Source: Escherichia coli
GTDB taxonomy: Bacteria; Pseudomonadota; Gammaproteobacteria; Enterobacterales; Enterobacteriaceae
Direction: 5' to 3' (one strand)
DNA: 64,000 nt
Assembly (NCBI RefSeq): GCF_046105845.1
Contig: NZ_CP151004.1
A program made the translations under genes and the position numbers. The notes below the pieces were generated by a model. That model saw nothing but the letters and a program-made list of their open reading frames with translations, searched no databases and had not been told where the DNA came from. Positions within the stretch are counted from its first letter, which is position 1, and each line of letters starts with the position of its first letter. Positions 3,840 through 21,476 of the stretch are shown piece by piece.

Positions 3840-4586
3840 GTGACCAAACTCAAACTTCTGGCACTTGGAGTGCTTATCGCAACGTCTGCAGGCGTAGCGC
3901 ACGCTGAAGGTAAATTTTCCCTGGGCGCAGGCGTAGGTGTCGTTGAACACCCATATAAAGATTACGATACCGATGTTTACCCAGTACCGGTAATCAACTA
4001 TGAAGGCGATAACTTCTGGTTCCGTGGCTTAGGTGGTGGTTACTACCTGTGGAATGACGCAACGGATAAACTTTCAATTACCGCTTACTGGTCGCCGCTT
4101 TACTTCAAAGCGAAAGACAGTGGCGATCACCAAATGCGTCACCTGGATGACCGTAAGAGCACCATGATGGCTGGTCTGTCTTATGCTCACTTTACCCAGT
4201 ACGGTTACCTGCGTACCACCCTGGCTGGCGATACCCTGGATAACAGCAACGGCATTGTTTGGGATATGGCCTGGTTGTATCGTTACACCAACGGCGGCCT
4301 GACCGTGACCCCGGGTATCGGTGTGCAGTGGAACAGCGAAAACCAGAACGAATACTATTATGGCGTATCGCGCAAAGAGTCCGCTCGCAGCGGTCTGCGT
4401 GGCTATAACCCGAACGACAGCTGGAGCCCTTACCTGGAGCTGAGCGCCAGCTACAACTTCCTCGGCGACTGGAGTTTTTACGGTACCGCGCGCTACACCC
4501 GTCTGTCTGATGAAGTTACTGACAGCCCAATGGTGGATAAATCCTGGACTGGCCTGATTTCTACCGGGATCACCTACAAATTCTGA
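3840..4586 (+). CDS. mipA: MipA, MltA-interacting outer membrane protein
   Basis: 248 aa ORF with signal peptide, GTG start; ends YKF typical of outer membrane beta-barrel; matches MipA. Confidence 0.9.
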   Translation: MTKLKLLALGVLIATSAGVAHAEGKFSLGAGVGVVEHPYKDYDTDVYPVPVINYEGDNFWFRGLGGGYYLWNDATDKLSITAYWSPLYFKAKDSGDHQMRHLDDRKSTMMAGLSYAHFTQYGYLRTTLAGDTLDNSNGIVWDMAWLYRYTNGGLTVTPGIGVQWNSENQNEYYYGVSRKESARSGLRGYNPNDSWSPYLELSASYNFLGDWSFYGTARYTRLSDEVTDSPMVDKSWTGLISTGITYKF

Positions 4587-4616
4587 TAATGCATCTTTCC
4601 AGGGCATTTTGTGCAT

Positions 4617-4643
4617 AAAAACAGGGCGTCATGCCCTGTTTTG
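4617..4643 (+). terminator. rho-independent terminator after mipA
   Basis: hairpin AAAACAGGGC-gtcat-GCCCTGTTTT followed by T-rich run. Confidence 0.7.
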
Positions 4644-4675
4644 CATTACGGTGGTGCAATACCTGGGAGGAAACA

Positions 4676-5530
4676 ATGCAACAAAAAATGATTCAATTTA
4701 GTGGCGATGTCTCACTGCCAGCCATAGGGCAGGGAACATGGTATATGGGCGAAGATGCCAGTCAGCGTAAAACAGAAGTTGCTGCACTACGCGCGGGCAT
4801 TGAGCTCGGTTTAACCCTCATTGATACCGCCGAAATGTATGCCGAGGGCGGTGCCGAAATGGTGGTTGGGGAAGCATTAACCGGCCTACGTGAGAACGTC
4901 TTTCTCGTCTCTAAAGTCTATCCGTGGAATGCTGGCGGGCAAAAAGCGATAAATGCATGCGAAGCCAGTTTACGCCGTCTCAATACTGATTATCTCGATC
5001 TCTACTTATTACACTGGTCTGGCAGTTTCGCTTTTGAAGAGACTGTCGCAGCGATGGAAAAATTGATCGCCCAGGGAAAAATTCGCCGCTGGGGCGTTTC
5101 TAACCTTGATTATGCCGATATGCAGGAACTCTGGCAGCTGCCGGGGGGAAATCAGTGTGCCACTAATCAGGTGCTTTACCATCTCGGTTCACGAGGGATT
5201 GAGTACGATCTACTTCCCTGGTGCCAGCAACAATATATGCCAGTGATGGCTTACAGTCCATTAGCCCAGGCCGGGCGGTTGCGCAATGGACTGTTAAAAA
5301 ACGCGGTAGTCAACGAAATTGCACATGCTCACAATATCAGCTCGGCACAAGTATTGTTGGCGTGGGTGATCAGTCATCAGGGTGTGATGGCGATTCCAAA
5401 AGCGGCCACGATTGCCCATGTCCAACAAAATGCGGCTGTGCTTGAGGTCGAACTTTCATCAGCGGAATTAGCTATGCTGGATAAGGCATATCCGGCACCA
5501 AAAGGAAAAACTGCGCTGGATATGGTGTGA
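4676..5530 (+). CDS. yeaE: YeaE, aldo-keto reductase
   Basis: ORF trimmed to the ATG preceded by GGAGG (284 aa); AKR family; synteny. Confidence 0.85.
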   Translation: MQQKMIQFSGDVSLPAIGQGTWYMGEDASQRKTEVAALRAGIELGLTLIDTAEMYAEGGAEMVVGEALTGLRENVFLVSKVYPWNAGGQKAINACEASLRRLNTDYLDLYLLHWSGSFAFEETVAAMEKLIAQGKIRRWGVSNLDYADMQELWQLPGGNQCATNQVLYHLGSRGIEYDLLPWCQQQYMPVMAYSPLAQAGRLRNGLLKNAVVNEIAHAHNISSAQVLLAWVISHQGVMAIPKAATIAHVQQNAAVLEVELSSAELAMLDKAYPAPKGKTALDMV

Positions 5531-5544
5531 TGTTGATACGTGCC

Positions 5545-5575
5545 GGATGCATCGCACCCGGCACACAACATTAAC
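5545..5575. repeat. REP-like palindromic element between convergent yeaE and yeaD
   Basis: GTGCCGGATGCATCGCACCCGGCAC imperfect palindrome resembling REP consensus. Confidence 0.4.
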
Positions 5576-5580
5576 GCAAA

Positions 5581-6465
5581 TTAACGTTTCGCAACGCGAA
5601 TGGATTGCGCCAGATGTGCAGGTTTCTCTTTGGTGACTTTTTGCGTTTCTGAGGCGTAAGCTGTTTCTACACAAACAAAGGTCTTGTAGCCATCATCCGG
5701 CATATCGCCCATGCTAACTGAAAGCGCCGGTCCTGGGTTCCAGCCTACAACGTTCAGATGATGCTGGTGGCCTACGGCGATAATACGATTCAGCGCTTCG
5801 TCATTAATCACGCTGCAATCTTGCGGATTCAGATACACGCGATCGGTACGGTCAGGGAAGGTCTGAATACCGTCGGTCAGTACATCTTCTTTCGCGTCAT
5901 TCACTTTATCAATGAAGCGATCGCCCAGTCCACTGACGCTTACCTTAGTGATATCACCCACGTTAAAGTAGGTATGCAGGGCAGAGGTGGTTTCAAATTC
6001 GCCGTGTGCTTCAAGATCGATTTCACAGGCTTTACCCACGCGGAAATGCGCTAATAGCGTAAAGTCGTGCGGCCAGAATTTTTTCGTCTCTTCGCTTTGT
6101 GTCAATTCAAAAGTCAGCGCTACGCCATCAGCATCTTCACGATGTGATTTCAGCGTCCACGGCAGGTTGCGGGCAAAACCGTGCGCAGGCAGACCTTGTT
6201 GTGCAGCCGGACCAAACCACGGCCAGCAAACCGGTACGCCACCGCGAATAGCGACGCCATTTTTGAACGGTGTGTTGTTGCTCAACCACAGAACTTCTTC
6301 TTCGCCCGCAGGTTTCCACGAGAGAAGGTGTGCGCCCTGTAATGCAAAAGAGGCTTTTACCTGGGGATGATCGACCACAATGAGGTCCAGTTCATCCAGT
6401 TTACGACGGGAGAGGACAGGGGAGATTTGTTCGATGACCGGAAGGGCAAAAATTTTCTTAATCAT
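5581..6465 (-). CDS. yeaD: YeaD, glucose-6-phosphate 1-epimerase (aldose epimerase family)
   Basis: ORF trimmed to internal Met giving 294 aa; matches YeaD; synteny. Confidence 0.85.
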   Translation of the reverse strand: MIKKIFALPVIEQISPVLSRRKLDELDLIVVDHPQVKASFALQGAHLLSWKPAGEEEVLWLSNNTPFKNGVAIRGGVPVCWPWFGPAAQQGLPAHGFARNLPWTLKSHREDADGVALTFELTQSEETKKFWPHDFTLLAHFRVGKACEIDLEAHGEFETTSALHTYFNVGDITKVSVSGLGDRFIDKVNDAKEDVLTDGIQTFPDRTDRVYLNPQDCSVINDEALNRIIAVGHQHHLNVVGWNPGPALSVSMGDMPDDGYKTFVCVETAYASETQKVTKEKPAHLAQSIRVAKR

Positions 6466-7885: not shown

Positions 7886-8299
7886 ATGGCTAATAAACCT
7901 TCGGCAGAAGAACTGAAAAAAAATTTGTCCGAGATGCAGTTCTACGTGACGCAGAATCATGGGACAGAGCCGCCATTTACGGGTCGTTTACTGCATAACA
8001 AGCGTGACGGCGTATATCACTGTTTGATCTGCGATGCCCCGCTGTTTCATTCCCAAACCAAGTATGATTCCGGCTGTGGCTGGCCCAGTTTCTACGAACC
8101 GGTGAGTGAAGAATCCATTCGTTATATCAAAGACTTGTCACATGGAATGCAGCGCATAGAAATTCGTTGCGGTAACTGTGATGCCCATCTGGGGCATGTC
8201 TTCCCTGACGGGCCGCAGCCAACGGGCGAACGTTATTGTGTTAACTCTGCTTCTTTACGCTTCACTGATGGTGAAAACGGCGAAGAAATCAACGGTTGA
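7886..8299 (+). CDS. msrB: Peptide methionine sulfoxide reductase MsrB
   Basis: 137 aa from [12 protein letters not shown]; CxxC...CxxC zinc motifs and [13 protein letters not shown]. Confidence 0.92.
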
Positions 8300-8340
8300 A
8301 AAAACGATTCAGCAACTTATTCCACAGGAGCGGAAAAATT

Positions 8341-8613
8341 ATGAATCTTGATGACATTATCAACAGCATGACGCCTGAGGTATACCAGCGTTTGTCGACC
8401 GCCGTTGAACTGGGGAAATGGCCTGATGGCGTTGCGTTGACCGAGGAACAAAAAGAGAACTGCCTGCAACTGGTGATGCTGTGGCAAGCCCGCCATAATA
8501 CCGAAGCACAGCATATGACAATTGACACAAATGGTCAGATGGTTATGAAGAGCAAACAGCAGTTAAAAGAAGATTTTGGTATCTCAGCAAAGCCGATTGC
8601 CATGTTTAAGTAA
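8341..8613 (+). CDS. yeaC: YeaC, DUF1315 small protein
   Basis: 90 aa from MNLDDIINSM; synteny downstream of msrB. Confidence 0.85.
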   Translation: MNLDDIINSMTPEVYQRLSTAVELGKWPDGVALTEEQKENCLQLVMLWQARHNTEAQHMTIDTNGQMVMKSKQQLKEDFGISAKPIAMFK

Positions 8614-8982
8614 GTGGTTTGTCCCCTTTTTGCCGCGGCTATGAAGGGGATAGCCAACAATGACCCCACGACTCATCTCAATTATCTCGCCATGACCTGG
8701 CTAAGTCCCAGTCCGATCTCTTGCCGTCGCGTTCACGCCTGAATGACTTCTCCTGAACTTAAGTCTCAGACCTATTTGGCCGGTAATCCCTCTCGAATTT
8801 GCTCTTTTTGCGTTCCGCCTTCCACCAACCTGTAACAGACCCAGCCATTTTCTGCGTAATTGTGATCTGAGTTGTAAAACGCAGATCATTATCTGTGTTT
8901 TACAGATTTAATGTTGACCTCAAAAATCATGTGGGTAAGTATGATGACCATCTAAGCAAAACAAAACACAGAGGATGACGCA

Positions 8983-10059
8983 ATGAAAGCACTGGCTCGG
9001 TTTGGCAAAGCCTTTGGCGGCTACAAGATGATCGATGTCCCACAACCCATTTGTGGCCCGGAAGATGTAGTGATTGAAATTAAAGCCGCGGCAATCTGCG
9101 GCGCAGACATGAAGCACTACAATGTCGATAGCGGTTCTGATGAGTTTAACTCTATCCGCGGCCATGAGTTCGCAGGTTGTATTGCGCAGGTTGGTGAAAA
9201 AGTCAAAGACTGGAAAGTGGGGCAACGCGTCGTGTCAGATAACAGCGGTCACGTCTGCGGCGTTTGTCCGGCCTGTGAACAAGGTGATTTTCTGTGTTGT
9301 ACAGAAAAAGTAAACCTTGGTCTGGATAACAATACCTGGGGCGGTGGTTTTTCCAAATATTGTCTGGTTCCTGGTGAAATTCTCAAAATTCATCGTCATG
9401 CGTTGTGGGAAATCCCTGATGGTGTTGATTATGAGGACGCAGCCGTACTTGACCCTATCTGTAATGCCTACAAATCCATCGCGCAGCAATCGAAATTCCT
9501 TCCTGGTCAGGATGTGGTCGTCATCGGCACTGGCCCACTCGGGCTGTTCTCCGTACAAATGGCGCGGATTATGGGGGCGGTAAATATCGTCGTCGTTGGT
9601 CTGCAAGAAGATGTGGCGGTCCGCTTTCCGGTTGCAAAAGAACTGGGTGCGACGGCTGTAGTAAATGGTTCTACCGAAGATGTGGTGGCGCGCTGCCAGC
9701 AAATTTGTGGCAAAGACAATCTGGGACTGGTGATTGAATGCTCCGGTGCCAATATCGCACTGAAACAAGCCATCGAAATGCTCCGTCCGAACGGGGAAGT
9801 GGTACGCGTTGGAATGGGCTTCAAACCTCTTGATTTCTCGATTAATGACATTACCGCCTGGAACAAAAGCATCATTGGGCATATGGCCTATGACTCCACC
9901 TCATGGCGTAACGCTCTCCGGCTATTAGCCAGCGGCGCTATCAAAGTCAAACCGATGATCACGCATCGTATCGGCCTGTCGCAATGGCGCGAAGGGTTTG
10001 AAGCGATGGTCGATAAAACCGCAATCAAAGTGATCATGACTTACGACTTTGATGAATAA
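8983..10059 (+). CDS. ydjL: YdjL, Zn-dependent alcohol/polyol dehydrogenase
   Basis: 358 aa; MDR family with GHEFAG and Cys-rich structural zinc motif. Confidence 0.88.
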   Translation: MKALARFGKAFGGYKMIDVPQPICGPEDVVIEIKAAAICGADMKHYNVDSGSDEFNSIRGHEFAGCIAQVGEKVKDWKVGQRVVSDNSGHVCGVCPACEQGDFLCCTEKVNLGLDNNTWGGGFSKYCLVPGEILKIHRHALWEIPDGVDYEDAAVLDPICNAYKSIAQQSKFLPGQDVVVIGTGPLGLFSVQMARIMGAVNIVVVGLQEDVAVRFPVAKELGATAVVNGSTEDVVARCQQICGKDNLGLVIECSGANIALKQAIEMLRPNGEVVRVGMGFKPLDFSINDITAWNKSIIGHMAYDSTSWRNALRLLASGAIKVKPMITHRIGLSQWREGFEAMVDKTAIKVIMTYDFDE

Positions 10060-10085
10060 CTACTCTCCTGAAGGAACGTTATCGC

Positions 10086-11465
10086 ATGGAACAGATAACA
10101 AAACCGCATTGTGGTGCACGGCTGGATCGCTTACCGGATTGCCGCTGGCATTCGTCAATGTTTGCTATCGTCGCGTTTGGCTTGCTTGTCTGCTGGAGTA
10201 ATGCCGTTGGTGGCTTGATCCTCGCGCAGCTGAAAGAGTTGGGCTGGACAGATAATTCCACCACTGCCACATTCTCAGCAATCACGACCGCCGGAATGTT
10301 TCTCGGTGCGCTGGTTGGCGGCATCATCGGTGACAAAACCGGTCGCAGAAATGCGTTCATCCTCTATGAGGCCATTCATATTGCCTCGATGATGGTCGGT
10401 GCTTTTTCACCGAATATGGATTTCCTTATTGCCTGCCGTTTTGTGATGGGCGTTGGGCTGGGAGCTTTACTGGTGACGCTGTTTGCTGGGTTCACCGAAT
10501 ATATGCCCGGTAGAAATCGCGGAACGTGGTCCAGTCGGGTTTCCTTTATTGGCAACTGGTCATATCCGCTCTGTTCATTGATTGCGATGGGACTCACGCC
10601 GCTGATTAGTGCTGAGTGGAACTGGCGGGTACAACTGCTTATCCCTGCAATATTGTCGCTTATCGCTACGGCGCTGGCCTGGCGCTACTTTCCTGAATCC
10701 CCGCGCTGGCTGGAATCGCGCGGACGGTATCAGGAAGCCGAGAAAGTCATGCGGAGTATAGAAGAAGGCGTCATACGCCAGACGGGTAAACCTTTGCCGC
10801 CCGTGGTTATTGCTGATGACGGTAAAGCGCCACAAGCGGTGCCGTATTCAGCCTTACTGACAGGAGTATTACTGAAACGCGTGATATTAGGTTCTTGTGT
10901 GCTGATTGCCATGAACGTTGTGCAGTACACACTAATTAACTGGTTGCCAACGATATTCATGACCCAGGGGATTAATTTAAAAGACTCGATTGTTTTAAAT
11001 ACCATGAGTATGTTTGGTGCGCCATTTGGTATTTTTATTGCCATGCTGGTGATGGATAAAATTCCGCGTAAAACAATGGGTGTGGGGCTATTAATCCTGA
11101 TTGCGGTGCTCGGATATATCTATTCACTGCAAACCAGTATGTTGCTCATAACGCTGATTGGTTTCTTCCTGATTACTTTCGTCTATATGTACGTTTGCTA
11201 TGCCTCGGCAGTGTATGTCCCTGAGATCTGGCCGACAGAGGCCAAATTACGTGGCTCCGGTCTGGCGAATGCAGTAGGGCGAATCAGTGGTATTGCCGCA
11301 CCTTATGCCGTTGCAGTGCTGCTCAGTAGTTATGGCGTAACGGGAGTCTTTATTCTTCTGGGGGCGGTTTCAATTATTGTCGCAATTGCTATCGCCACCA
11401 TTGGAATTGAAACCAAAGGTGTCTCCGTTGAAAGTTTAAGTATTGATGCAGTAGTCAATAAATAA
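10086..11465 (+). CDS. ydjK: YdjK, MFS transporter
   Basis: 459 aa multi-TM protein; MFS motifs; synteny. Confidence 0.88.
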   Translation: MEQITKPHCGARLDRLPDCRWHSSMFAIVAFGLLVCWSNAVGGLILAQLKELGWTDNSTTATFSAITTAGMFLGALVGGIIGDKTGRRNAFILYEAIHIASMMVGAFSPNMDFLIACRFVMGVGLGALLVTLFAGFTEYMPGRNRGTWSSRVSFIGNWSYPLCSLIAMGLTPLISAEWNWRVQLLIPAILSLIATALAWRYFPESPRWLESRGRYQEAEKVMRSIEEGVIRQTGKPLPPVVIADDGKAPQAVPYSALLTGVLLKRVILGSCVLIAMNVVQYTLINWLPTIFMTQGINLKDSIVLNTMSMFGAPFGIFIAMLVMDKIPRKTMGVGLLILIAVLGYIYSLQTSMLLITLIGFFLITFVYMYVCYASAVYVPEIWPTEAKLRGSGLANAVGRISGIAAPYAVAVLLSSYGVTGVFILLGAVSIIVAIAIATIGIETKGVSVESLSIDAVVNK

Positions 11466-11481
11466 TACTGGTGGATTCAAA

Positions 11482-12525
11482 ATGAAAAATTCAAAAGCAA
11501 TATTGCAGGTGCCGGGCACAATGAAAATTATTTCAGCAGAAATACCTGTGCCTAAAGAAGATGAAGTTTTGATTAAAGTAGAATATGTCGGTATTTGTGG
11601 TTCAGATGTACATGGTTTTGAATCAGGCCCGTTTATTCCGCCTAAAGACCCAAATCAAGAAATTGGCCTGGGACATGAATGCGCCGGGACGGTTGTGGTT
11701 GTGGGAAGCCGTGTGCGCAAATTTAAAGCGGGGGATCGGGTAAATATCGAACCTGGCGTTCCTTGCGGTCACTGTCGTTACTGTCTGGAAGGCAAATATA
11801 ACATCTGCCCGGACGTTGATTTTATGGCGACACAACCTAACTACCGCGGCGCATTAACGCACTATCTGTGTCATCCGGAGAGCTTTACTTACAAACTGCC
11901 CGACAATATGGACACGATGGAAGGGGCGCTGGTGGAGCCTGCCGCAGTCGGGATGCATGCCGCGATGCTGGCAGATGTTAAACCGGGTAAGAAGATAATT
12001 ATTCTGGGAGCGGGTTGTATTGGTTTGATGACGTTGCAAGCGTGCAAATGCCTGGGAGCTACGGATATTGCCGTCGTTGATGTACTGGAAAAACGTCTGA
12101 CAATGGCGGAACAGCTCGGCGCGACAGTAGTTATTAACGGCGCAAAAGAAGACACTATTGCACGCTGTCAGCAATTTACTGAAGAAATGGGCGCAGATAT
12201 TGTTTTCGAAACAGCGGGTTCTGCGGTCACCGTTAAACAGGCACCTTATCTGGTAATGCGCGGCGGTAAAATTATGATTGTTGGTACTGTACCGGGCGAT
12301 TCGGCAATCAATTTCCTCAAAATCAATCGCGAAGTCACTATTCAGACAGTATTCCGCTATGCCAATCGTTATCCTGTCACGATTGAAGCTATTTCCTCAG
12401 GGCGATTCGATGTGAAATCGATGGTGACACATATTTACGATTATCAGGATGTACAACAGGCATTTGAAGAGTCGGTTAACAACAAACGCGACATTATTAA
12501 AGGCGTTATTAAAATTAGCGATTAA
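11482..12525 (+). CDS. ydjJ: YdjJ, Zn-dependent dehydrogenase
   Basis: 347 aa; GHECAG and CGHCRYC motifs. Confidence 0.88.
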   Translation: MKNSKAILQVPGTMKIISAEIPVPKEDEVLIKVEYVGICGSDVHGFESGPFIPPKDPNQEIGLGHECAGTVVVVGSRVRKFKAGDRVNIEPGVPCGHCRYCLEGKYNICPDVDFMATQPNYRGALTHYLCHPESFTYKLPDNMDTMEGALVEPAAVGMHAAMLADVKPGKKIIILGAGCIGLMTLQACKCLGATDIAVVDVLEKRLTMAEQLGATVVINGAKEDTIARCQQFTEEMGADIVFETAGSAVTVKQAPYLVMRGGKIMIVGTVPGDSAINFLKINREVTIQTVFRYANRYPVTIEAISSGRFDVKSMVTHIYDYQDVQQAFEESVNNKRDIIKGVIKISD

Positions 12526-12545
12526 TTAATACGGGAGAACAGAAT

Positions 12546-13382
12546 ATGCTCGCAGATATCAGATATTGGGAAAACGATGCCACAAATAAACATTATGCAA
12601 TTGCCCATTTTAACGTATGGAATGCAGAAATGTTGATGGGCGTTATCGACGCAGCCGAAGAAGCGAAATCACCGGTTATTATTTCTTTTGGTACAGGTTT
12701 TGTCGGCAACACCTCATTTGAAGATTTCTCTCACATGATGGTATCAATGGCACAAAAAGCAACGGTGCCGGTAATAACTCATTGGGATCATGGTCGGAGT
12801 ATGGAGATTATTCATAACGCCTGGACTCATGGTATGAATTCACTAATGCGTGATGCTTCCGCGTTTGATTTCGAAGAAAATATTCGTTTAACCAAAGAGG
12901 CTGTTGATTTTTTCCATCCGCTGGGTATTCCGGTAGAGGCGGAATTAGGGCATGTCGGTAATGAAACCGTTTATGAGGAAGCTCTGGCGGGCTATCACTA
13001 TACCGATCCTGACCAGGCGGCTGAATTTGTTGAACGTACGGGCTGTGACTCATTGGCTGTCGCCATCGGCAACCAGCATGGGGTTTATACGTCAGAGCCA
13101 CAATTGAACTTTGAGGTCGTCAAACGCGTACGCGATGCCGTTTCTGTTCCGCTGGTTTTGCACGGTGCATCGGGGATCAGTGATGCCGACATTAAAACTG
13201 CAATTTCGTTGGGTATCGCGAAAATCAACATTCATACGGAGCTCTGTCAGGCCGCAATGGTAGCAGTGAAAGAAAACCAGGATCAGCCTTTCCTGCATTT
13301 AGAACGTGAAGTACGTAAAGCTGTAAAAGAACGGGCATTGGAAAAAATTAAACTGTTCGGTTCTGATGGCAAAGCGGAATAA
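12546..13382 (+). CDS. ydjI: YdjI, class II aldolase
   Basis: 278 aa; FBP/tagatose-bisphosphate aldolase family. Confidence 0.88.
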   Translation: MLADIRYWENDATNKHYAIAHFNVWNAEMLMGVIDAAEEAKSPVIISFGTGFVGNTSFEDFSHMMVSMAQKATVPVITHWDHGRSMEIIHNAWTHGMNSLMRDASAFDFEENIRLTKEAVDFFHPLGIPVEAELGHVGNETVYEEALAGYHYTDPDQAAEFVERTGCDSLAVAIGNQHGVYTSEPQLNFEVVKRVRDAVSVPLVLHGASGISDADIKTAISLGIAKINIHTELCQAAMVAVKENQDQPFLHLEREVRKAVKERALEKIKLFGSDGKAE

Positions 13383-13386
13383 TGAT

Positions 13387-14334
13387 ATGGATAATCTCGA
13401 CGTTATTTGTATAGGTGCCGCTATTGTTGATATTCCATTGCAACCGGTCAGTAAAAATATCTTTGATGTGGATTCTTATCCTCTTGAAAGAATCGCAATG
13501 ACCACCGGGGGTGATGCAATAAATGAAGCAACAATTATTTCTCGTCTGGGCCATCGCACAGCATTAATGAGTCGTATTGGTAAAGATGCCGCCGGGCAAT
13601 TTATTCTCGACCATTGCCGCAAAGAGAATATTGATATTCAAAGCCTGAAGCAGGACGTCAGCATAGATACCTCTATTAACGTTGGACTGGTGACGGAGGA
13701 TGGCGAGCGGACGTTTGTCACAAACCGTAACGGCAGTCTGTGGAAATTGAATATTGACGATGTTGATTTTGCGCGGTTTTCTCAGGCGAAATTATTATCA
13801 CTGGCCAGTATTTTCAACAGTCCCCTATTGGATGGTAAAGCGCTAACAGAAATTTTTACGCAAGCTAAAGCCCAGCAGATGATTATCTGTGCCGATATGA
13901 TCAAACCGCGGTTGAATGAAACGCTGGATGATATTTGCGAAGCATTGAGTTATGTCGATTATCTGTTTCCTAATTTTGCCGAGGCAAAATTACTCACCGG
14001 GAAAGAGACACTGGATGAAATTGCTGACTGCTTTCTTGCGTGCGGCGTAAAAACGGTGGTGATTAAAACGGGTAAAGACGGCTGCTTTATCAAGCGTGGT
14101 GACATGACGATGAAGGTGCCGGCGGTCGCAGGAATAACCGCCATCGACACTATTGGCGCAGGCGATAACTTTGCTTCTGGCTTTATAGCGGCTCTGTTAG
14201 AAGGCAAAAATCTGCGTGAATGCGCACGCTTTGCCAATGCAACGGCGGCTATCTCGGTTCTAAGCGTCGGTGCCACCACCGGCGTAAAAAACAGAAAGCT
14301 GGTCGAACAATTGCTGGAAGAATACGAAGGATAA
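13387..14334 (+). CDS. ydjH: YdjH, PfkB-family sugar kinase
   Basis: 315 aa from MDNLDV; GAGDNF motif. Confidence 0.88.
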   Translation: MDNLDVICIGAAIVDIPLQPVSKNIFDVDSYPLERIAMTTGGDAINEATIISRLGHRTALMSRIGKDAAGQFILDHCRKENIDIQSLKQDVSIDTSINVGLVTEDGERTFVTNRNGSLWKLNIDDVDFARFSQAKLLSLASIFNSPLLDGKALTEIFTQAKAQQMIICADMIKPRLNETLDDICEALSYVDYLFPNFAEAKLLTGKETLDEIADCFLACGVKTVVIKTGKDGCFIKRGDMTMKVPAVAGITAIDTIGAGDNFASGFIAALLEGKNLRECARFANATAAISVLSVGATTGVKNRKLVEQLLEEYEG

Positions 14335-14343
14335 TGAAGGCAA

Positions 14344-15324
14344 ATGAAAAAGATACCTTTAGGCACAACGGATATTACGCTTTCACGAATGGGGTTGGGG
14401 ACATGGGCCATTGGCGGCGGTCCTGCATGGAATGGCGATCTCGATCGGCAAATATGTATTGATACGATTCTTGAAGCCCATCGTTGTGGCATTAATCTGA
14501 TTGATACTGCGCCAGGATATAACTTTGGCAATAGTGAAGTTATCGTCGGTCAGGCGTTAAAAAAACTGCCTCGTGAACAGGTTGTAGTAGAAACCAAATG
14601 CGGCATTGTCTGGGAACGAAAAGGAAGTTTATTCAACAAAGTTGGCGATCGGCAGTTGTATAAAAACCTTTCCCCGGAATCTATCCGCGAAGAGGTAGAA
14701 GCCAGCTTGCAACGTCTGGGTATTGATTACATCGATATCTACATGACGCACTGGCAGTCGGTGCCGCCATTTTTTACGCCGATCGCTGAAACTGTCGCAG
14801 TGCTCAATGAGTTAAAGGCCGAAGGGAAAATTCGCGCTATAGGCGCTGCTAACGTCGATGCTGACCATATCCGCGAGTATCTGCAATATGGTGAACTGGA
14901 TATTATTCAGGCGAAATACAGTGTCCTCGACCGGGCAATGGAAAGCGAACTGCTGCCGCTATGTCGTGATAATGGCATTGTGGTACAGGTTTATTCCCCG
15001 TTAGAGCAGGGATTGTTGACCGGCACCATCACGCGTGATTACGTTCCGGGCGGCGCTCGGGCAAATAAAGTCTGGTTCCAGCGTGAAAACATGCTGAAAG
15101 TGATTGATATGCTTGAACAGTGGCAGCCACTCTGTGCTCGTTATCAGTGCACAATTCCCACTCTGGCACTGGCGTGGATATTAAAACAGAGTGATTTAAT
15201 CTCCATTCTTAGTGGGGCTACTGCACCGGAACAGGTACGCGAAAATGTCGCGGCATTGAATATCAACTTATCGGATGCAGACGCAACATTGATGAGGGAA
15301 ATGGCAGAGGCCCTGGAGCGTTAA
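14344..15324 (+). CDS. ydjG: YdjG, aldo-keto reductase
   Basis: 326 aa AKR family. Confidence 0.88.
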   Translation: MKKIPLGTTDITLSRMGLGTWAIGGGPAWNGDLDRQICIDTILEAHRCGINLIDTAPGYNFGNSEVIVGQALKKLPREQVVVETKCGIVWERKGSLFNKVGDRQLYKNLSPESIREEVEASLQRLGIDYIDIYMTHWQSVPPFFTPIAETVAVLNELKAEGKIRAIGAANVDADHIREYLQYGELDIIQAKYSVLDRAMESELLPLCRDNGIVVQVYSPLEQGLLTGTITRDYVPGGARANKVWFQRENMLKVIDMLEQWQPLCARYQCTIPTLALAWILKQSDLISILSGATAPEQVRENVAALNINLSDADATLMREMAEALER

Positions 15325-15460
15325 ATACTCAACACGATTCACCTCTGTTTCTGTGAAAACTGTGATGAAAATCTGTGATTCAAACAGGTTATTTTGAAAG
15401 TAAACATCGGTTATGCGATAATCGCGCTAATGTGATGTAAAAAGATACAGGGGTGTAATC

Positions 15461-16219
15461 GTGGCGGCAAAAGACAGGATTCAGGCAATTAAGCAAATGG
15501 TTGCCAACGATAAAAAGGTGACAGTCTCAAATTTGAGTGGGATTTTTCAGGTAACCGAAGAAACCATTCGCCGCGATCTTGAGAAGCTGGAAGATGAAGG
15601 CTTTTTGACCAGAACCTATGGTGGTGCTGTTTTAAATACAGCGATGTTGACGGAGAATATCCATTTTTATAAGCGCGCTTCATCGTTTTATGAAGAGAAG
15701 CAGCTTATTGCACGCAAGGCACTATCCTTTATCGACAATAAAACCACTATGGCAGCCGATTCCAGTAGTACCGTTATGGAATTGCTCAAATTGTTGCAGG
15801 ACCGTAGTGACCTGACGTTGCTAACTAACTCGGCGGAAGCGATTCATGTTCTGGCTCAATCAGAAATTAAAGTCGTTTCAACGGGGGGGGAACTAAACAA
15901 AAATACACTTTCCCTGCAAGGAAGAATTACTAAAGAGATCATCAGCCGCTACCATGTCGATATCATGGTAATGAGTTGTAAAGGTCTTGATATTAACAGC
16001 GGCGCGCTGGACTCTAACGAAGCGGAAGCTGAAATCAAAAAGACAATGATCCGTCAGGCGACAGAGGTTGCGTTATTGGTTGATCACTCTAAGTTTGATC
16101 GCAAAGCTTTTGTCCAGTTAGCTGACTTTAGTCATATTAATTACATAATAACTGATAAATCACCGGGTGCAGAGTGGATAGCATTTTGCAAAGACAATAA
16201 TATCCAGCTGGTGTGGTAA
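15461..16219 (+). CDS. ydjF: YdjF, DeoR-family transcriptional regulator
   Basis: 252 aa, GTG start; N-terminal HTH and DeoR C-terminal domain. Confidence 0.88.
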   Translation: MAAKDRIQAIKQMVANDKKVTVSNLSGIFQVTEETIRRDLEKLEDEGFLTRTYGGAVLNTAMLTENIHFYKRASSFYEEKQLIARKALSFIDNKTTMAADSSSTVMELLKLLQDRSDLTLLTNSAEAIHVLAQSEIKVVSTGGELNKNTLSLQGRITKEIISRYHVDIMVMSCKGLDINSGALDSNEAEAEIKKTMIRQATEVALLVDHSKFDRKAFVQLADFSHINYIITDKSPGAEWIAFCKDNNIQLVW

Positions 16220-16335
16220 TTTAAGCACACGTTGTCAATATTATTTGTTCCTGCGCCTGGAAATAAAATGATGATAAAGATGCGGCAAGTGAATTTGCCG
16301 CAATTGCTACCTTTTTAGCAAATCCGAGGCACCTA

Positions 16336-17694
16336 ATGGAACAATATGATCAAATTGGCGCAAGACTGGACCGCTTGCCTTTGGCCCGGTTTCATTATCG
16401 TATATTTGGTATTATAAGCTTTAGTCTGTTATTAACGGGTTTTTTGAGTTATTCAGGCAATGTTGTTTTAGCAAAGCTGGTAAGCAATGGATGGTCAAAT
16501 AATTTCCTCAATGCCGCCTTTACCTCGGCATTAATGTTTGGTTATTTCATCGGCTCTCTTACCGGTGGGTTCATCGGTGATTATTTTGGGCGGCGCAGGG
16601 CTTTTCGCATAAATCTTCTCATCGTCGGTATTGCGGCAACAGGGGCCGCTTTTGTCCCTGATATGTACTGGCTCATTTTCTTTCGCTTCCTGATGGGCAC
16701 AGGAATGGGGGCGCTGATTATGGTTGGCTATGCTTCGTTTACGGAGTTTATCCCCGCGACGGTGCGTGGAAAATGGTCCGCGCGGCTGTCATTTGTCGGT
16801 AACTGGTCGCCCATGCTGTCTGCGGCGATAGGCGTGGTGGTTATCGCTTTTTTTAGTTGGCGGATAATGTTTCTGCTGGGTGGTATTGGCATACTGTTAG
16901 CCTGGTTTCTCTCAGGTAAATACTTTATTGAGTCGCCTCGATGGTTGGCGGGGAAAGGGCAAATCGCAGGTGCAGAAAGCCAACTTCGTGAAGTAGAGCA
17001 GCAAATTGAAAGAGAGAAGAGTGTTCGTTTACCCCCGCTTACTTTGAATCAGAGCAACAGCAAGGCTAACGTAATCAATGGTACTTTCTGGCTGCTGTTT
17101 AAAGGGGAAATGTTACGACGTACATTAGTCGCGATTACTGTTTTAATTGCAATGAACATTTCACTTTATACCATCACCGTATGGATACCGACCATATTTG
17201 TTAACTCCGGCATTGATGTCGATAAATCAATATTAATGACTGCTGTTATTATGATTGGCGCTCCGGTAGGAATATTTATTGCGGCATTAATTATTGATCA
17301 TTTTCCTCGTCGATTATTTGGCTCCGCCTTACTTATTATTATTGCCGTGTTAGGCTATATCTATTCAATTCAAACTACAGAGTGGGCGATTTTAATCTAT
17401 GGCCTGGTGATGATCTTCTTTTTATACATGTATGTTTGCTTCGCGTCGGCGGTTTATATCCCGGAGCTTTGGCCAACGCATTTACGCTTGCGCGGTTCGG
17501 GTTTCGTTAATGCCGTCGGACGGATCGTCGCGGTCTTCACGCCTTATGGCGTTGCGGCACTATTAACGCATTATGGGTCAATCACGGTGTTTATGGTGCT
17601 TGGCGTGATGTTAGTGCTCTGTGCGCTGGTCCTCTCCATTTTTGGCATCGAAACGCGGAAGGTGTCATTGGAAGAGATTTCTGAGGTGAATTAA
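16336..17694 (+). CDS. ydjE: YdjE, MFS transporter
   Basis: 452 aa multi-TM protein, paralogous to YdjK. Confidence 0.88.
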   Translation: MEQYDQIGARLDRLPLARFHYRIFGIISFSLLLTGFLSYSGNVVLAKLVSNGWSNNFLNAAFTSALMFGYFIGSLTGGFIGDYFGRRRAFRINLLIVGIAATGAAFVPDMYWLIFFRFLMGTGMGALIMVGYASFTEFIPATVRGKWSARLSFVGNWSPMLSAAIGVVVIAFFSWRIMFLLGGIGILLAWFLSGKYFIESPRWLAGKGQIAGAESQLREVEQQIEREKSVRLPPLTLNQSNSKANVINGTFWLLFKGEMLRRTLVAITVLIAMNISLYTITVWIPTIFVNSGIDVDKSILMTAVIMIGAPVGIFIAALIIDHFPRRLFGSALLIIIAVLGYIYSIQTTEWAILIYGLVMIFFLYMYVCFASAVYIPELWPTHLRLRGSGFVNAVGRIVAVFTPYGVAALLTHYGSITVFMVLGVMLVLCALVLSIFGIETRKVSLEEISEVN

Positions 17695-17744
17695 ATCTTT
17701 CGTTGATGGCGTCAATTGCCAGATGTACCACTGACGTGTTTTAT

Positions 17745-17779
17745 CTGGCCTACAATGGCAGTACAGAATTGTAGGCCAG
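17745..17779. terminator. 12-bp perfect inverted repeat between convergent ydjE and pncA (bidirectional terminator or palindromic unit)
   Basis: CTGGCCTACAAT-N11-ATTGTAGGCCAG. Confidence 0.45.
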
Positions 17780-17786
17780 CATAAAA

Positions 17787-18428
17787 TTACTCCTGCGTCT
17801 CTTCCCAATCTGCCAGCGTATATAGCGTTGCCCCAGCTGCTGACATCTCCATAAACGCGTGCGCACTGTCCTGTGGCTGGATATTCACGCCACGACAACC
17901 ATCGGTAATCACATTAACCTTATAACCTAACTGTAACGCGTCCAGCACGGTAAACTTCACGCAATAGTCAGTAGCCAGGCCCATAATGATCAATTCATCG
18001 ATTTCATGATCGCGTAACCAGTCATCGAGCGTGGTTTTCTGCCGACGGCCGTTATCAAAAAAGGCACTGTAACTGTCAACTAAAGGATTTTCGCCTTTAT
18101 GGAACACCGCTGCGATCGCTTTTTGGTTCAGTAACGGATGTAATTGTGCGCCTTCACTGTTCTGCACACAGTGATCTGGCCAGAAGGTTTGTGGCAAACC
18201 GTCGAGTTGGCCTGGCGTATAAGGCTCTACACCGTGCTGACTGGCAAAACTGCCGTGATTCGCCGGGTGCCAGTCCTGACTGGCGATAACCGCTTCACCG
18301 CGCGACTGGCACCAGTCAATCAGGCGGTTAGCGACATCCACCGTACTGTCACCTTCCGGCACGGCGAGCGCGCCACCAGCACAGAAATCATTTTGTAAAT
18401 CGACCAGTAACAGGGCGCGAGGGGGCAT
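17787..18428 (-). CDS. pncA: Nicotinamidase/pyrazinamidase
   Basis: 213 aa from MPPRALLLVDLQNDF; isochorismatase fold. Confidence 0.92.
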   Translation of the reverse strand: MPPRALLLVDLQNDFCAGGALAVPEGDSTVDVANRLIDWCQSRGEAVIASQDWHPANHGSFASQHGVEPYTPGQLDGLPQTFWPDHCVQNSEGAQLHPLLNQKAIAAVFHKGENPLVDSYSAFFDNGRRQKTTLDDWLRDHEIDELIIMGLATDYCVKFTVLDALQLGYKVNVITDGCRGVNIQPQDSAHAFMEMSAAGATLYTLADWEETQE

Positions 18429-18438
18429 TGCAGTCTCC

Positions 18439-19455
18439 TTAATCATCCGGCGTCAGTTCGCCGCGCAGGTTTTGGCTCATGGCCTTGCGAATGGTTTCAG
18501 TATCCAGTTCCTGGCTAAGCAGGTAATGCAGTTTGGTTAGTGTGGCTTCTACAGTCATATCTGCACCGCCAATAACGCCGGCATGGGCGAGGGCGTTACC
18601 GGTGGCATAACCACCCATGTTCACTTTACCGGACATACATTGTGTCAGGTTGACCACCACAATACCGCGATCGCTGGCTTCTTGTAATTCCTGCAGGAAG
18701 GCTTTGTTTTGTGGCGCATTACCCACGCCATATGAGCGCAGAATCAATGCTTTCACAGGTTGGCGCAGAAAATTGCGCACGACGTCAGCAGAAATCCCCG
18801 GATAAATCGTCACTACGCCAATTGGTTGCGGCGTGATTGGATGAACGATCAATTCCCCTTCACCGTGCGGGGCGGGTGGCGTATTCAAACGACGAATATG
18901 GATACCTGCTTCCAGTAACGGAGGAAGGTTTGGAGAGGCAAACGCATCAAAACCATCGGCATGGGCTTTGGTGGTACGGTTGCCACGATAAAGTCGGTTA
19001 TTAAAAAAGAGAGTTACTTCGTTGGTAGGATAATTCGCCGCAACGTACAACGCATTCAGCAGATTAATTTGTCCGTCAGAGCGTAACTCAGCTAGCGGGA
19101 TTTGTGACCCTGTCACAATAACCGGTTTACCGAGATTCTCGAGCATGAACGACAGCGCAGAGGCGGTATACGCCATCGTGTCGGTGCCGTGCAGAATGAC
19201 AAAACCATCATAGTCGTCATAATGCGCTTTAATATCTTCAGCAATATGCTGCCAGTCTTCTGGCGTCATATCTGAAGAGTCCATCAGCGGCGTATATTCA
19301 TGAATGGTGAAATCTGGCATCTCCGGGCGATGGAATTCCGGCATCAGCGCCAGTTGGCGCTGTAGATGACCTGACACCGGAATATAACCCTGCTCGGAAC
19401 GCTGCATCCCGATGGTCCCGCCCGTGTAGGCGACGTAAATTGATTTCTTTTGCAT
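18439..19455 (-). CDS. ansA: L-asparaginase 1 (cytoplasmic)
   Basis: 338 aa from MQKKSIYVAYTGGTIGM; the 402 aa track ORF is an upstream in-frame extension. Confidence 0.92.
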   Translation of the reverse strand: MQKKSIYVAYTGGTIGMQRSEQGYIPVSGHLQRQLALMPEFHRPEMPDFTIHEYTPLMDSSDMTPEDWQHIAEDIKAHYDDYDGFVILHGTDTMAYTASALSFMLENLGKPVIVTGSQIPLAELRSDGQINLLNALYVAANYPTNEVTLFFNNRLYRGNRTTKAHADGFDAFASPNLPPLLEAGIHIRRLNTPPAPHGEGELIVHPITPQPIGVVTIYPGISADVVRNFLRQPVKALILRSYGVGNAPQNKAFLQELQEASDRGIVVVNLTQCMSGKVNMGGYATGNALAHAGVIGGADMTVEATLTKLHYLLSQELDTETIRKAMSQNLRGELTPDD

Positions 19456-19619: not shown

Positions 19620-21476
19620 TTAACGCACGTTGGCGCAGGTCAGGCAAAACGCATAACGGTTTTGTGGGTCGTTAAACGCTGCCAGCTTGTCGCTTTCACT
19701 TTTAACGGTAGAGGCTACCGAGGCCAGCGGTGCAGGTAACATGGCCTGGAACGCATCTGGCAACATTGCCCGGACAGAACCAGACATGTTGTCCATCACT
19801 TTGTCGAAGAAGGTCGGTTCATCAACGTAGTATTCCAGATGCCACTGTTTCACTTTTGCCAGCTCTGCTGCTTTGGCGACCGCATCATCGAAATCACCGA
19901 GACTATCGACCAGCCCGTTAGCTTTTGCATCCTGACCGGTCCAGACGTGGCCCTGGGCGATTTTATCAATCTGCTCCGGCGTCGAATGACGCGCATCAGC
20001 AACCAGCGTGATAAAGCGTTTATAGCCATTCTCAATGCTTAACTGCATCATCTGCTGCGCTTCCGGCGGCAGTGCCTTGGTGATAGAAACATCCGCCAAC
20101 GGTGAAGTTGATACACCATCAGTATGAACACCAATCGAATCCAGACTATTTTCTACGGTGGTGATCACGCCGAAGATACCGATAGAACCGGTCAGGGTGC
20201 TGGGGTTAGCCACAATGTAATTAGCTGGTGTGGAAATCCAGTAACCACCAGATGCCGCCATGCCGCCCATCGATACAACCACAGGCTTACCCGCTGCCCG
20301 GGCTGCTGCCAGTTCAGCGCGAATCACTTCAGACGCGGTAACGCTGCCACCTGGGCTATTAACACGCAGAACAATCGCTTTCACTTTCGGGTCAAGGCGA
20401 GCGTCGCGGATTTGTGCCGCAGTGGTATCACCGCCAACATTCCCCTGAGTTTCCTCGCCATCCATAATTGCGCCATTAGCGAAGACGACACCGATACTGT
20501 CACCGGTATCTGCCGGCGTTTTCAATGCGTAATCGTAATAACTGATGGCGCGATAATTTTTATCAGTCTTACTCCAGCCGAACTCTTTGGTCAGAGCTTT
20601 TTCGATTTCCGCACTCGATGCCAGTGCATCGACCAGCTTGTTTTCCAGCGCATATTTCGCGGTATCGCCACCGGTTTTGGTTAAACCCTCAAGCAACCCT
20701 TGCGCGCCAGGGAATACCTGCTGAGCAGGGATCTGCCGGTTAGCGGCAACAGTATTCAGATAGTTTTGCCACAGCTCACCAATCCAGCGGCTGTCAGCTT
20801 CGCGAGCTGCCGGCGACATATCATCACGAATAAACGGTTCAACGGCAGATTTATACGTACCCACGCGGAACACATGGGTGGAAACTTTCAGCTTATCCAG
20901 TAACGATTTGTAGTACAGACCGTTGGTGGCAAAACCGTGCAGATCAACCACGCCTTGCGGAGACAGCCAAATTTTATTGGCGAAACTGGCGAGATAATAT
21001 TGCCCCTGGCTGTAGTTCTCGCCAACGGCATAAACCGGTTTCCCGCTGTCACGAAACTCTTTCAGGGCTTTGCCGATGTATTGCATAGACGGCTGGTCGC
21101 CGCCTGCGAAGTTTTTCAGATCCATCACGATACCGGTGATATTGCGGTCATCCTTCGCCTGGCGAATGGTATTGACGATATCAAACAGTGAGTTTTCCTG
21201 CAGACGATCGGAACTGGCACCAAGCAGTTGGCGGCTTAATTTACTAAACCGCTGAGAACTGTCGGGTTTATCGACGATCACACCAGAAATGTCCAGCAGC
21301 AGTGCGCCACGACTGGCCGTTTCTTTCGAATCACCACCACTGACCTGCATCCAAATCCCCACACCAACCAGTACGAGAAAAATAAAGAACAGGTTAAGTA
21401 CCATTTCACGGACGAAATTCAGCAGACGCCACGTCCATTTAAAAAATCCGGCAATAAATCGCCAAAGGGTTCGCAT
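19620..21476 (-). CDS. sppA: Signal peptide peptidase A (protease IV)
   Basis: 618 aa from [12 protein letters not shown]; tandem ClpP/crotonase-like domains. Confidence 0.92.

Follow-up and report, generated by a model that had tools for sequence, protein, structure and literature searches.

Among the described sugar catabolic systems, the pathways for L-idonate and L-galactonate rely on a zinc-dependent medium-chain dehydrogenase (IdnD and LgoD, respectively) that oxidizes an aldonate at C5 to a keto-uronate, together with a major facilitator superfamily (MFS) transporter and a dedicated regulator, and the keto-uronate is then reduced or isomerized into gluconate or hexuronate metabolism. 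These are E. coli pathways, as is the sulfo-Embden-Meyerhof-Parnas (sulfo-EMP) pathway for sulfoquinovose (yihS-T-U-V), which employs a PfkB-family kinase, an aldolase that releases dihydroxyacetone phosphate (DHAP), a reductase for an anionic aldehyde, a DeoR-family regulator, and two transporters, and the galactitol (gatYZABCDR) and N-acetylgalactosamine (agaR/kbaY) systems combine a class II ketose-phosphate aldolase with a DeoR-family repressor, gat also having a zinc-dependent dehydrogenase. Here we compare with these systems the ydjLKJIHG-ydjF-ydjE cluster found at positions 8983–17694 of a 64,000-nucleotide stretch of the Escherichia coli contig NZ_CP151004.1 (the window). Its counterpart in E. 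coli K-12 MG1655 (b1776–b1769) has the same eight genes in the same order, orientation, and position, and belongs to the small number of multi-enzyme catabolic operons in K-12 that lack a known natural substrate.

The ydj genes share elements with each of these systems and membership with none. Where the L-idonate and L-galactonate pathways reduce or isomerize the keto-uronate, ydj has a C1 kinase and a DHAP aldolase instead. The kinase, DHAP-releasing aldolase, reductase, DeoR-family regulator, and pair of transporters recall sulfo-EMP, but the sulfo-EMP aldolase is of another family, its ketose is made by an isomerase rather than by dehydrogenases, and nothing in ydj points to sulfonates; we treat this likeness as an analogy only. 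In contrast to gat and aga, which take up their substrates through the phosphotransferase system (PTS) and cleave a bisphosphate, ydj would use MFS uptake and a substrate reported to be a 1-phosphate with a carboxylate at its far end. The genes are as follows, with the Pfam matches that place each in its family.

8983–10059, + strand: ydjL, zinc-dependent medium-chain dehydrogenase, 358 amino acids (ADH_N and ADH_zinc_N)
10086–11465, + strand: ydjK, MFS transporter, 459 amino acids (MFS_1 and Sugar_tr)
11482–12525, + strand: ydjJ, zinc-dependent dehydrogenase resembling polyol/aldonate dehydrogenases, 347 amino acids (ADH_N and ADH_zinc_N)
12546–13382, + strand: ydjI, class II zinc-dependent aldolase using DHAP, 278 amino acids (PF01116, E=7e-89)
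13387–14334, + strand: ydjH, PfkB-family sugar kinase, 315 amino acids (PF00294, E=5e-74)
14344–15324, + strand: ydjG, NADH-dependent aldo-keto reductase, 326 amino acids (Pfam E=6e-66)
15461–16219, + strand: ydjF, DeoR/GlpR-family regulator, 252 amino acids, GTG start (HTH_DeoR PF08220, E=3e-17, and DeoRC PF00455, E=2e-49)
16336–17694, + strand: ydjE, second MFS transporter, 452 amino acids (MFS_1 and Sugar_tr)

The eight names, their order, and their coordinates had been proposed in a sequence-only reading of the region, and the open reading frame (ORF) list, Pfam, RefSeq annotation, and alignment to K-12 all agree with it, Pfam also recovering the domain classes it had listed (two zinc dehydrogenases, two MFS transporters, a class II aldolase, a PfkB kinase, an aldo-keto reductase, and a DeoR regulator). 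According to the ORFs and the RefSeq annotation of matching regions, the genes lie on one strand in the order L-K-J-I-H-G-F-E between yeaC and pncA, with msrB-yeaC flanking the cluster on one side and pncA-ansA on the other. The very short intergenic gaps ascribed to the whole cluster are present from ydjL to ydjG (26, 16, 20, 4, and 9 nucleotides), but not between ydjG and ydjF (136 nucleotides) or between ydjF and ydjE (116 nucleotides). For ydjH, the start at 13366 that gives the longest ORF was dropped in favor of 13387, which agrees with RefSeq and with the crystallized construct in the Protein Data Bank (PDB).

Compared with K-12 MG1655, all eight genes have equal lengths and the same start and stop codons, contain no internal stops, and are 96.1–99.0% identical at the nucleotide level with 0–9 amino-acid changes each, for a total of 168 nucleotide and 29 amino-acid differences. 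YdjI is identical to the K-12 protein, so that published results for the K-12 enzyme carry over directly; YdjH has a single change (R163Q), at a position free to vary among orthologues, and ydjL (98.6% nucleotide identity) and ydjF have three amino-acid changes each. The amino-acid positions at which the window differs from K-12 are all variable among orthologues, with the partial exception of YdjF P89S, where the proline is fixed in Enterobacterales and variable outside them. The ratio dN/dS for the eight genes is 0.00–0.11 against K-12 and 0.007–0.057 against Escherichia whittamii, and on these comparisons the genes are under strong purifying selection. The cluster is most likely an intact and working E. 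coli ydjLKJIHG operon, accompanied by ydjF, its regulator gene, and by ydjE, which encodes a second transporter. All E. coli references annotate it, the gene call itself is routine, and this already known and correctly annotated cluster is one for which the window changes nothing in what is known. The gene most diverged from K-12 is ydjE (96.1% nucleotide identity, 53 nucleotide differences, and nine amino-acid changes, six of them grouped at residues 230–248), with a dS of 0.149 as compared with 0.04–0.08 in its neighbors; identity to K-12, taken per kilobase, falls to 96–97% at 16–17 kb. The pattern is suggestive of a recombination tract or of a central loop that evolves quickly.

The enzymes fall into well-defined families. 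YdjI matches PDB entry 6OFU ("YdjI aldolase", E=6e-188) and scores 325 bits against the TIGR00167 ketose-bisphosphate aldolase subfamily (cut-off 215.6); it also matches tagatose-bisphosphate aldolase models (E~1e-72), staying under the cut-offs of the GatY and KbaY models. YdjH matches PDB entries 3H49/3IN1 ("sugar kinase ydjH", E=6e-206), and YdjJ matches 5VM2 over its full length (E=4e-231), its next-best structures being ketose reductase and sorbitol, xylitol, and L-arabinitol dehydrogenases. YdjL, which is only 28% identical to YdjJ, has L-threonine 3-dehydrogenase as its nearest solved structure (E=2e-42). Both dehydrogenases show a sub-threshold likeness to the NCBIfam L-idonate 5-dehydrogenase (IdnD) model (117–175 bits, cut-off 469), and neither belongs to the L-idonate 5-dehydrogenase or the L-threonine 3-dehydrogenase equivalog (best scores 117–217 bits, NCBIfam cut-offs 380–469); judged by these scores, YdjL and YdjJ are relatives rather than members. 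YdjG clears the NCBIfam equivalog NF049922 "NADH-dependent methylglyoxal reductase" with 627.8 bits (cut-off 550). The transporters YdjK and YdjE are paralogues with 44% identity, and the best NCBIfam likeness of YdjK is to the aromatic acid/H+ symporter subfamily, under its cut-off.

In RefSeq the K-12 proteins are named "L-glycero-L-galacto-octuluronate kinase" (YdjH), "L-glycero-L-galacto-octuluronate-1-phosphate aldolase" (YdjI), and "NADH-dependent methylglyoxal reductase" (YdjG). In the accounts that citing papers give of the enzymology (Huddleston/Raushel, Biochemistry 2019), YdjH and YdjI prefer long-chain monosaccharides that end in a carboxylate, and the aldol chemistry of YdjI joins DHAP with L-arabinuronate (PMC9602453, PMC11194214). 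Retro-aldol cleavage of a ketose-1-phosphate by YdjI to DHAP and an aldehyde is thus known from literature that we cite second-hand, and from the RefSeq name. According to this literature and by sequence identity, YdjH phosphorylates 2-keto sugars at C1, YdjI splits the product to DHAP and an aldehyde-acid, and YdjG reduces an aldehyde with NADH. A phosphate terminus is reportedly accepted by YdjI as well, so that the carboxylate may not be required. The sequence-only reading had called the pathway poorly understood and its substrate debated, which is fair: the best in-vitro substrate of YdjI "has no natural abundance", in the words of one citing paper (PMC9602453), and our full-text literature searches found no paper, later ones included, that names a natural substrate of the cluster.

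A scan for YdjI with one genome per species yielded 148 relatives, and the best 80 of the 148 were analyzed as loci. In most of these 80 the order L-(K)-J-I-H-G-F is kept, far outside Enterobacterales and above all among gut Firmicutes, and this conservation supports the view that the genes are one functional unit. Besides Enterobacterales, the order is found in Lachnospiraceae, other Clostridia, Negativicutes (Veillonella, Megamonas), Erysipelotrichaceae, Anaerococcus, Atopobiaceae, Parafannyhessea, and Synergistaceae; Gilliamella has the cassette in rearranged form. Carriers other than enterobacteria are largely gut or rumen isolates and metagenome-assembled genomes. The best 80 loci include E. 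whittamii and Escherichia sp. E1V33 and no E. coli, E. albertii, E. fergusonii, Salmonella, or Enterobacter genome, and the absence of E. coli probably reflects which representative genome the collection holds.

Between the window and Lachnospiraceae, protein identity is 85–87% for YdjI, 82–83% for YdjL, 78–79% for YdjJ, 67% for YdjH, 62–66% for YdjG, 52–54% for YdjK, and 51–53% for YdjF. At the DNA level, identity to the Firmicutes cassettes is only 68–72%, and the G+C content of the cassette follows that of its host (32% in Clostridium puniceum, 37% in Veillonella, and 46–50% in Lachnospiraceae). A recent transfer between phyla was therefore rejected, and the pattern speaks for transfers long ago, after which the three most conserved enzymes were very strongly constrained. 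In a neighbor-joining tree of concatenated YdjL, YdjJ, YdjI, YdjH, and YdjG, which as a distance tree with midpoint rooting is indicative only, the sequences from Enterobacterales make up a single clade lying within Firmicutes clades, and Gilliamella is placed elsewhere.

The cassettes differ most in how they import their substrate. When the flanking ORFs of the fetched loci were clustered and representatives scanned against Pfam, three transporter solutions were seen. One pairs the MFS transporter (ydjK) with a sodium:dicarboxylate-symporter-family gene, which 28 loci have; another has a Liv-type ATP-binding cassette (ABC) system with a Peripla_BP_6 binding protein, in about 10–12 loci without ydjK; and the third, in Enterobacterales, has the two MFS paralogues YdjK and YdjE, ydjE being found at its position only in the cassettes of this order. 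None of the three is of the ABC or PTS types usual for neutral sugars, in keeping with an anionic substrate. Firmicutes cassettes such as those of Schaedlerella arabinosiphila (locus L039) and a Lachnospiraceae member (L025) share the L-K-J-I-H-G-F order with the window; unlike the window, they have the symporter-family gene after F, no ydjE, and an extra ribulose-phosphate-3-epimerase-family gene between L and K. This last gene is inserted there in about 26 Firmicutes loci, and E. coli has no counterpart. Six Clostridia loci (L047, L050, L056, and L077–L079) have cassette variants without ydjK that are flanked by a recurring module of LamB/YcsF (5-oxoprolinase subunit A family), a class I/II aminotransferase, an RraA-like aldolase, and a LysR regulator, with two further ORFs that are putatively the other two 5-oxoprolinase subunits; the module may be part of the same pathway or an unrelated neighbor.

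Alignment of the upstream sequences of 13 Enterobacterales loci (13 genera or species), sequence scans, and direct reading brought out the following candidate control elements around the window's genes.

8614–8982, no strand assigned: yeaC-ydjL intergenic region (369 nucleotides), within the segment that is absent from empty-site genomes (see below) and containing the ydjL control region
8861–8905, + strand: candidate operator array upstream of ydjL, a TGTGATC box and an imperfect palindrome in a conserved block
8914–8942, + strand: likely ydjL promoter, -35 TTGACC (8914–8919), 17-nucleotide spacer, weak -10 AAGTAT (8937–8942)
15340–15385, + strand: conserved motifs upstream of the ydjF promoter, CACCTCTGTTTCTGTGAAAA then AAATCTGTGATTCA
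15394–15422, + strand: likely ydjF promoter, -35 TTGAAA, 17-nucleotide spacer, extended -10 TGcGATAAT
16281–16302, no strand assigned: G+C-rich hairpin TGCGGCAAGTGAATTTGCCGCA in the ydjF-ydjE gap, from a terminator-like scan and direct sequence reading

Conservation upstream of ydjL starts abruptly at about 8860, the sequence further upstream not being conserved, and the intergenic region as a whole differs from K-12 at 10 of its 369 positions. The TGTGATC box (8861–8867) is invariant across the 13 loci and is followed by the imperfect palindrome TTGTAAAACGCAGAT/ATCTGTGTTTTACAG at 8872–8905, an inverted repeat of 15 pairs. In the proposed ydjL promoter, TTGAC is invariant and the A/T positions of the -10 hexamer are invariant or nearly so; a promoter at 8899–8927 from a consensus scan was set aside in favor of this one, which is conserved across genera. 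In the ydjG-ydjF gap, which is identical to that of K-12, conservation across the 13 loci spans about 15338–15466. Of the promoter-like matches in the region, the likely ydjF promoter there scores best (10 of 12 positions with the TG extension), and the TG and most key positions of both hexamers are invariant.

The two promoters share an upstream motif. The sequence ATCTGTGWTT occurs twice in the 64-kb window, at 8891–8900 and 15371–15380, both copies starting 23 nucleotides upstream of the start of a -35 hexamer, and at both promoters a YTGTGAAA-like element lies about 20 nucleotides further upstream. This shared motif is probably the operator of YdjF, by which the regulator would repress the operon and its own gene. 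The palindrome core CAGAT-N4-ATCTG is found just twice in the window against 0.05 expected, the second copy lying inside ydjH at 13876–13889, where CAGATGATTATCTG matches CAGATCATTATCTG at 8882–8895 (16 of 17 bases agreeing over 13875–13891). It is present in K-12 and absent from E. whittamii and from other genera, and could be an auxiliary operator or a chance occurrence. Two other candidates were examined: a CRP site at 8861–8876 (TGTGA-N6-TTGTG) is not claimed, as only one half-site fits the consensus, and a copy of the motif at the ydjL ribosome-binding site, with an arm at 8963–8978 complementary to 8886–8901, is left as weak, the exact copy being confined to Escherichia and missing from K-12. 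The hairpin at 16281–16302 may terminate or attenuate transcription after ydjF. An Rfam scan of 8000–18500 at a permissive threshold gave no riboswitch or small RNA in the 369-nucleotide ydjL leader region. Published work has shown that a ydjL promoter fragment is silent in vitro and in culture and turned on during passage through the mouse gut (PMC6561318), and that Rho-dependent termination occurs in the ydjL leader or ORF (bioRxiv 10.1101/2020.07.18.207399).

We suggest that the cluster on balance probably serves the repressor-controlled use of an anionic sugar present in the gut, namely an aldonate or keto-uronate that probably has more than six carbons. The acid sugar would be imported by YdjK and/or YdjE, which might also move a reduced by-product. 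YdjJ and YdjL would then oxidize the carbon adjoining the terminal CH2OH of an aldonate or polyol acid to give a 2-keto sugar acid, this being the position at which L-idonate 5-dehydrogenase and sorbitol dehydrogenase act. In keeping with the in-vitro enzymology as reported second-hand, YdjH would phosphorylate the C1 hydroxyl and YdjI would cleave the product into DHAP, which enters glycolysis, and a shorter aldehyde-acid, and the leftover aldehyde would be reduced by YdjG. YdjF would hold the ydjL and ydjF promoters shut through the shared motif until a pathway intermediate appears, probably a phosphorylated ketose; DeoR-family repressors usually respond to a phosphorylated intermediate.

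Several lines of evidence bear on the parts of this scheme. The anionic nature of the substrate is indicated by the symporter-family gene of 28 loci and by the Liv-type ABC system of the loci without ydjK, and the dehydrogenase step by the nearest relatives of YdjJ, the ketose reductase/sorbitol dehydrogenases, and by the sub-threshold likeness to L-idonate 5-dehydrogenase. Relevance to the gut follows from the activity of the ydjL promoter in the mouse (PMC6561318) and from the gut and rumen origin of most carriers. The description of the cluster as a sugar-acid catabolic system, made beforehand from the sequence, fits the carboxylate preference in vitro, the octuluronate names in RefSeq, and the anion- and amino-acid-type transporters of homologous cassettes. 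Other points weigh against the scheme. Because the best in-vitro substrate is described as lacking natural abundance (PMC9602453), the true substrate could be of another chain length or charge; our literature searches found no reported activity for YdjL or YdjJ, and YdjG has been shown only as a methylglyoxal reductase. The candidate operator was assigned from sequence conservation, and a position upstream of the -35 hexamer would equally suit an activator. The epimerase-family gene of the Firmicutes loci implies that their pathways may differ from that of E. coli by one step. A broader proposal, which we make only tentatively, is that the cassette is a widely shared gut-bacterial pathway for an acidic sugar, possibly a 7–9-carbon aldonate or keto-uronate from microbial or dietary glycans, that passed between Firmicutes, Actinobacteria, and Proteobacteria and has been extremely constrained ever since.

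The main rival to an acidic substrate is a neutral polyol or rare ketose (a hexitol, heptitol, or octitol), for which the dehydrogenases would make a ketose, YdjH would phosphorylate it, YdjI would yield DHAP and a neutral aldose, and YdjG would reduce the aldose. The structural neighbors of YdjJ, with ketose reductase and the sorbitol, xylitol, and L-arabinitol dehydrogenases the closest, would suit such a route, as would the Sugar_tr matches of both YdjK and YdjE. Against it, both transporters score best with anion or aromatic-acid symporter subfamilies, the homologous cassettes have acquired a sodium:dicarboxylate-symporter-family gene or a Liv-type ABC system, types that usually carry anions, and not a sugar ABC or PTS system, and the published preference, as cited in PMC9602453, is for carboxylate-terminated substrates. 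We regard a neutral substrate as unlikely.

It is much less probable still that the cluster is mainly a defense against reactive aldehydes such as methylglyoxal, centered on YdjG: this protein does clear the methylglyoxal reductase equivalog, but aldo-keto reductases commonly reduce methylglyoxal as a side activity. Methylglyoxal was raised as a possible reason for gut expression by the authors of PMC6561318, but such a role leaves unexplained why a kinase, a DHAP aldolase, two transporters, and a DeoR regulator should accompany the reductase in a fixed order across phyla.

Returning to the proposed acidic-sugar pathway, its genes are not shared by all E. coli. A megablast search of 8983–17694 against 5426 complete E. 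coli genomes found the cluster, annotated there as ydjL, K, J, I, H, G, F, and E, in 4335 (79.9%), and a query of the joined flanks (1 kb up to the yeaC stop codon and 1 kb from the pncA stop codon) found an empty yeaC-pncA site, with both flanks together about 160 bp apart, in 1091 (20.1%). As the second number is the exact complement of the first, the cluster is a clean two-state polymorphism. The authors of the YdjI work are said to have given a carrier frequency of about 80% of E. coli genomes. Among phylogroup B1 isolates from meat plants, ydjI was reported in only about 30% (PMC9602453). In 81 of the carriers less than 80% of the cluster is covered in one place. The megablast matches also include one copy on a plasmid record and some genomes with matches in up to three places, and the match in strain GF43, broken into two pieces, extends over 9,911 bp, implying that about 1.2 kb has been inserted.

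In the alignment with an empty site (L003), homology breaks off directly behind the yeaC stop codon and picks up again, now diverged, at a palindromic element beside pncA; these alignment limits place the variable segment at about 8617 to about 17715, or 9.1 kb. The element lies as follows.

17718–17781, no strand assigned: element resembling a repetitive extragenic palindromic (REP) sequence, between the convergent ydjE and pncA, just outside the right edge of the presence/absence segment

In the same permissive Rfam scan, the only two hits, both sub-threshold, fell in the REP-like element, with a weak match to the naRNA4 family, which derives from REP elements. A diverged copy stands at the empty site, about 65–70% identical by eye, where the flanking genes are 98.6–99.4% identical to those of the window.

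The sequence-only reading had called the cluster an island. The term suits a 9.1-kb presence/absence polymorphism with lowered G+C content (46.4% in the cluster against 49.6% in the window, and 44–48% over 11–18 kb against 50–53% in the flanks), so that both variable presence and atypical base composition, two marks of a genomic island, are found. It does not extend to the machinery of one: the annotated genes of the region include no integrase or insertion sequence (IS) element, there is no tRNA in 1–30000, and no direct repeats were found at the two boundaries, the one repeat pair about 9.1 kb apart (D9, at 8421 inside yeaC and 17541 inside ydjE) missing them. A classical mobile island was rejected for lack of a tRNA and of a direct repeat at the two boundaries. 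The cluster occupies the same position between msrB-yeaC and pncA-ansA in E. whittamii, Citrobacter, the Klebsiella oxytoca group, Yokenella, and Intestinirhabdus, and in Raoultella it adjoins msrB and ansA. We infer that the occupied state is ancestral in Escherichia and that the empty state represents loss. Between yeaC and ydjL, on the opposite strand, locus L009 has a GH18 chitinase-family gene (4446–6219, Pfam E=7e-64); a GH18 gene is found at the same position in 10–12 Citrobacter, Klebsiella, and Yokenella loci. In most cases a small ORF with an HNH-like Cys/His motif accompanies it, and Escherichia lacks both.

That the cluster in this strain is a silent remnant on its way to the same loss seems scarcely credible: the 1091 genomes without it, the 81 incompletely covered carriers, its silence in laboratory culture (PMC6561318), and the Rho-dependent termination in the ydjL leader or ORF (bioRxiv 10.1101/2020.07.18.207399) could be read in that way, but the eight ORFs are intact with dN/dS of 0.00–0.11, their differences from K-12 lie at variable columns, the promoter regions are conserved, and the ydjL promoter fires in the gut (PMC6561318). 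Gut induction, absence from a fifth of genomes, and nearly unchanged proteins in many gut anaerobes make the substrate question a tractable one. If the cluster is indeed a gut pathway for an acidic sugar, the compound would define a new nutrient niche, usable by 80% of E. coli and not by most B1 strains. What is added here is the exact 4335/1091 split, the conservation across phyla, the exchange of transporters, and the shared promoter motif, useful context of which primary papers may cover parts and which leaves the classification of the genes as it was.

As for the strain itself, no complete E. coli genome matches positions 20000–44999 of the window (25 kb) at above 97.5%, and the window, going by these identities, seems to represent a divergent, poorly sampled lineage of E. 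coli. The ydj cluster is up to 99.3% identical in some strains, the 18-kb region is 98.0% identical to K-12, and the ydj segment may have a recombination history different from that of its surroundings. Between topB and gdhA, where K-12 presumably has no such genes, the window has two long ORFs on the + strand (25729–29375, of 571 and 649 amino acids) that are annotated in the best-matching genome as an Hsp70-family protein and a J-domain protein.

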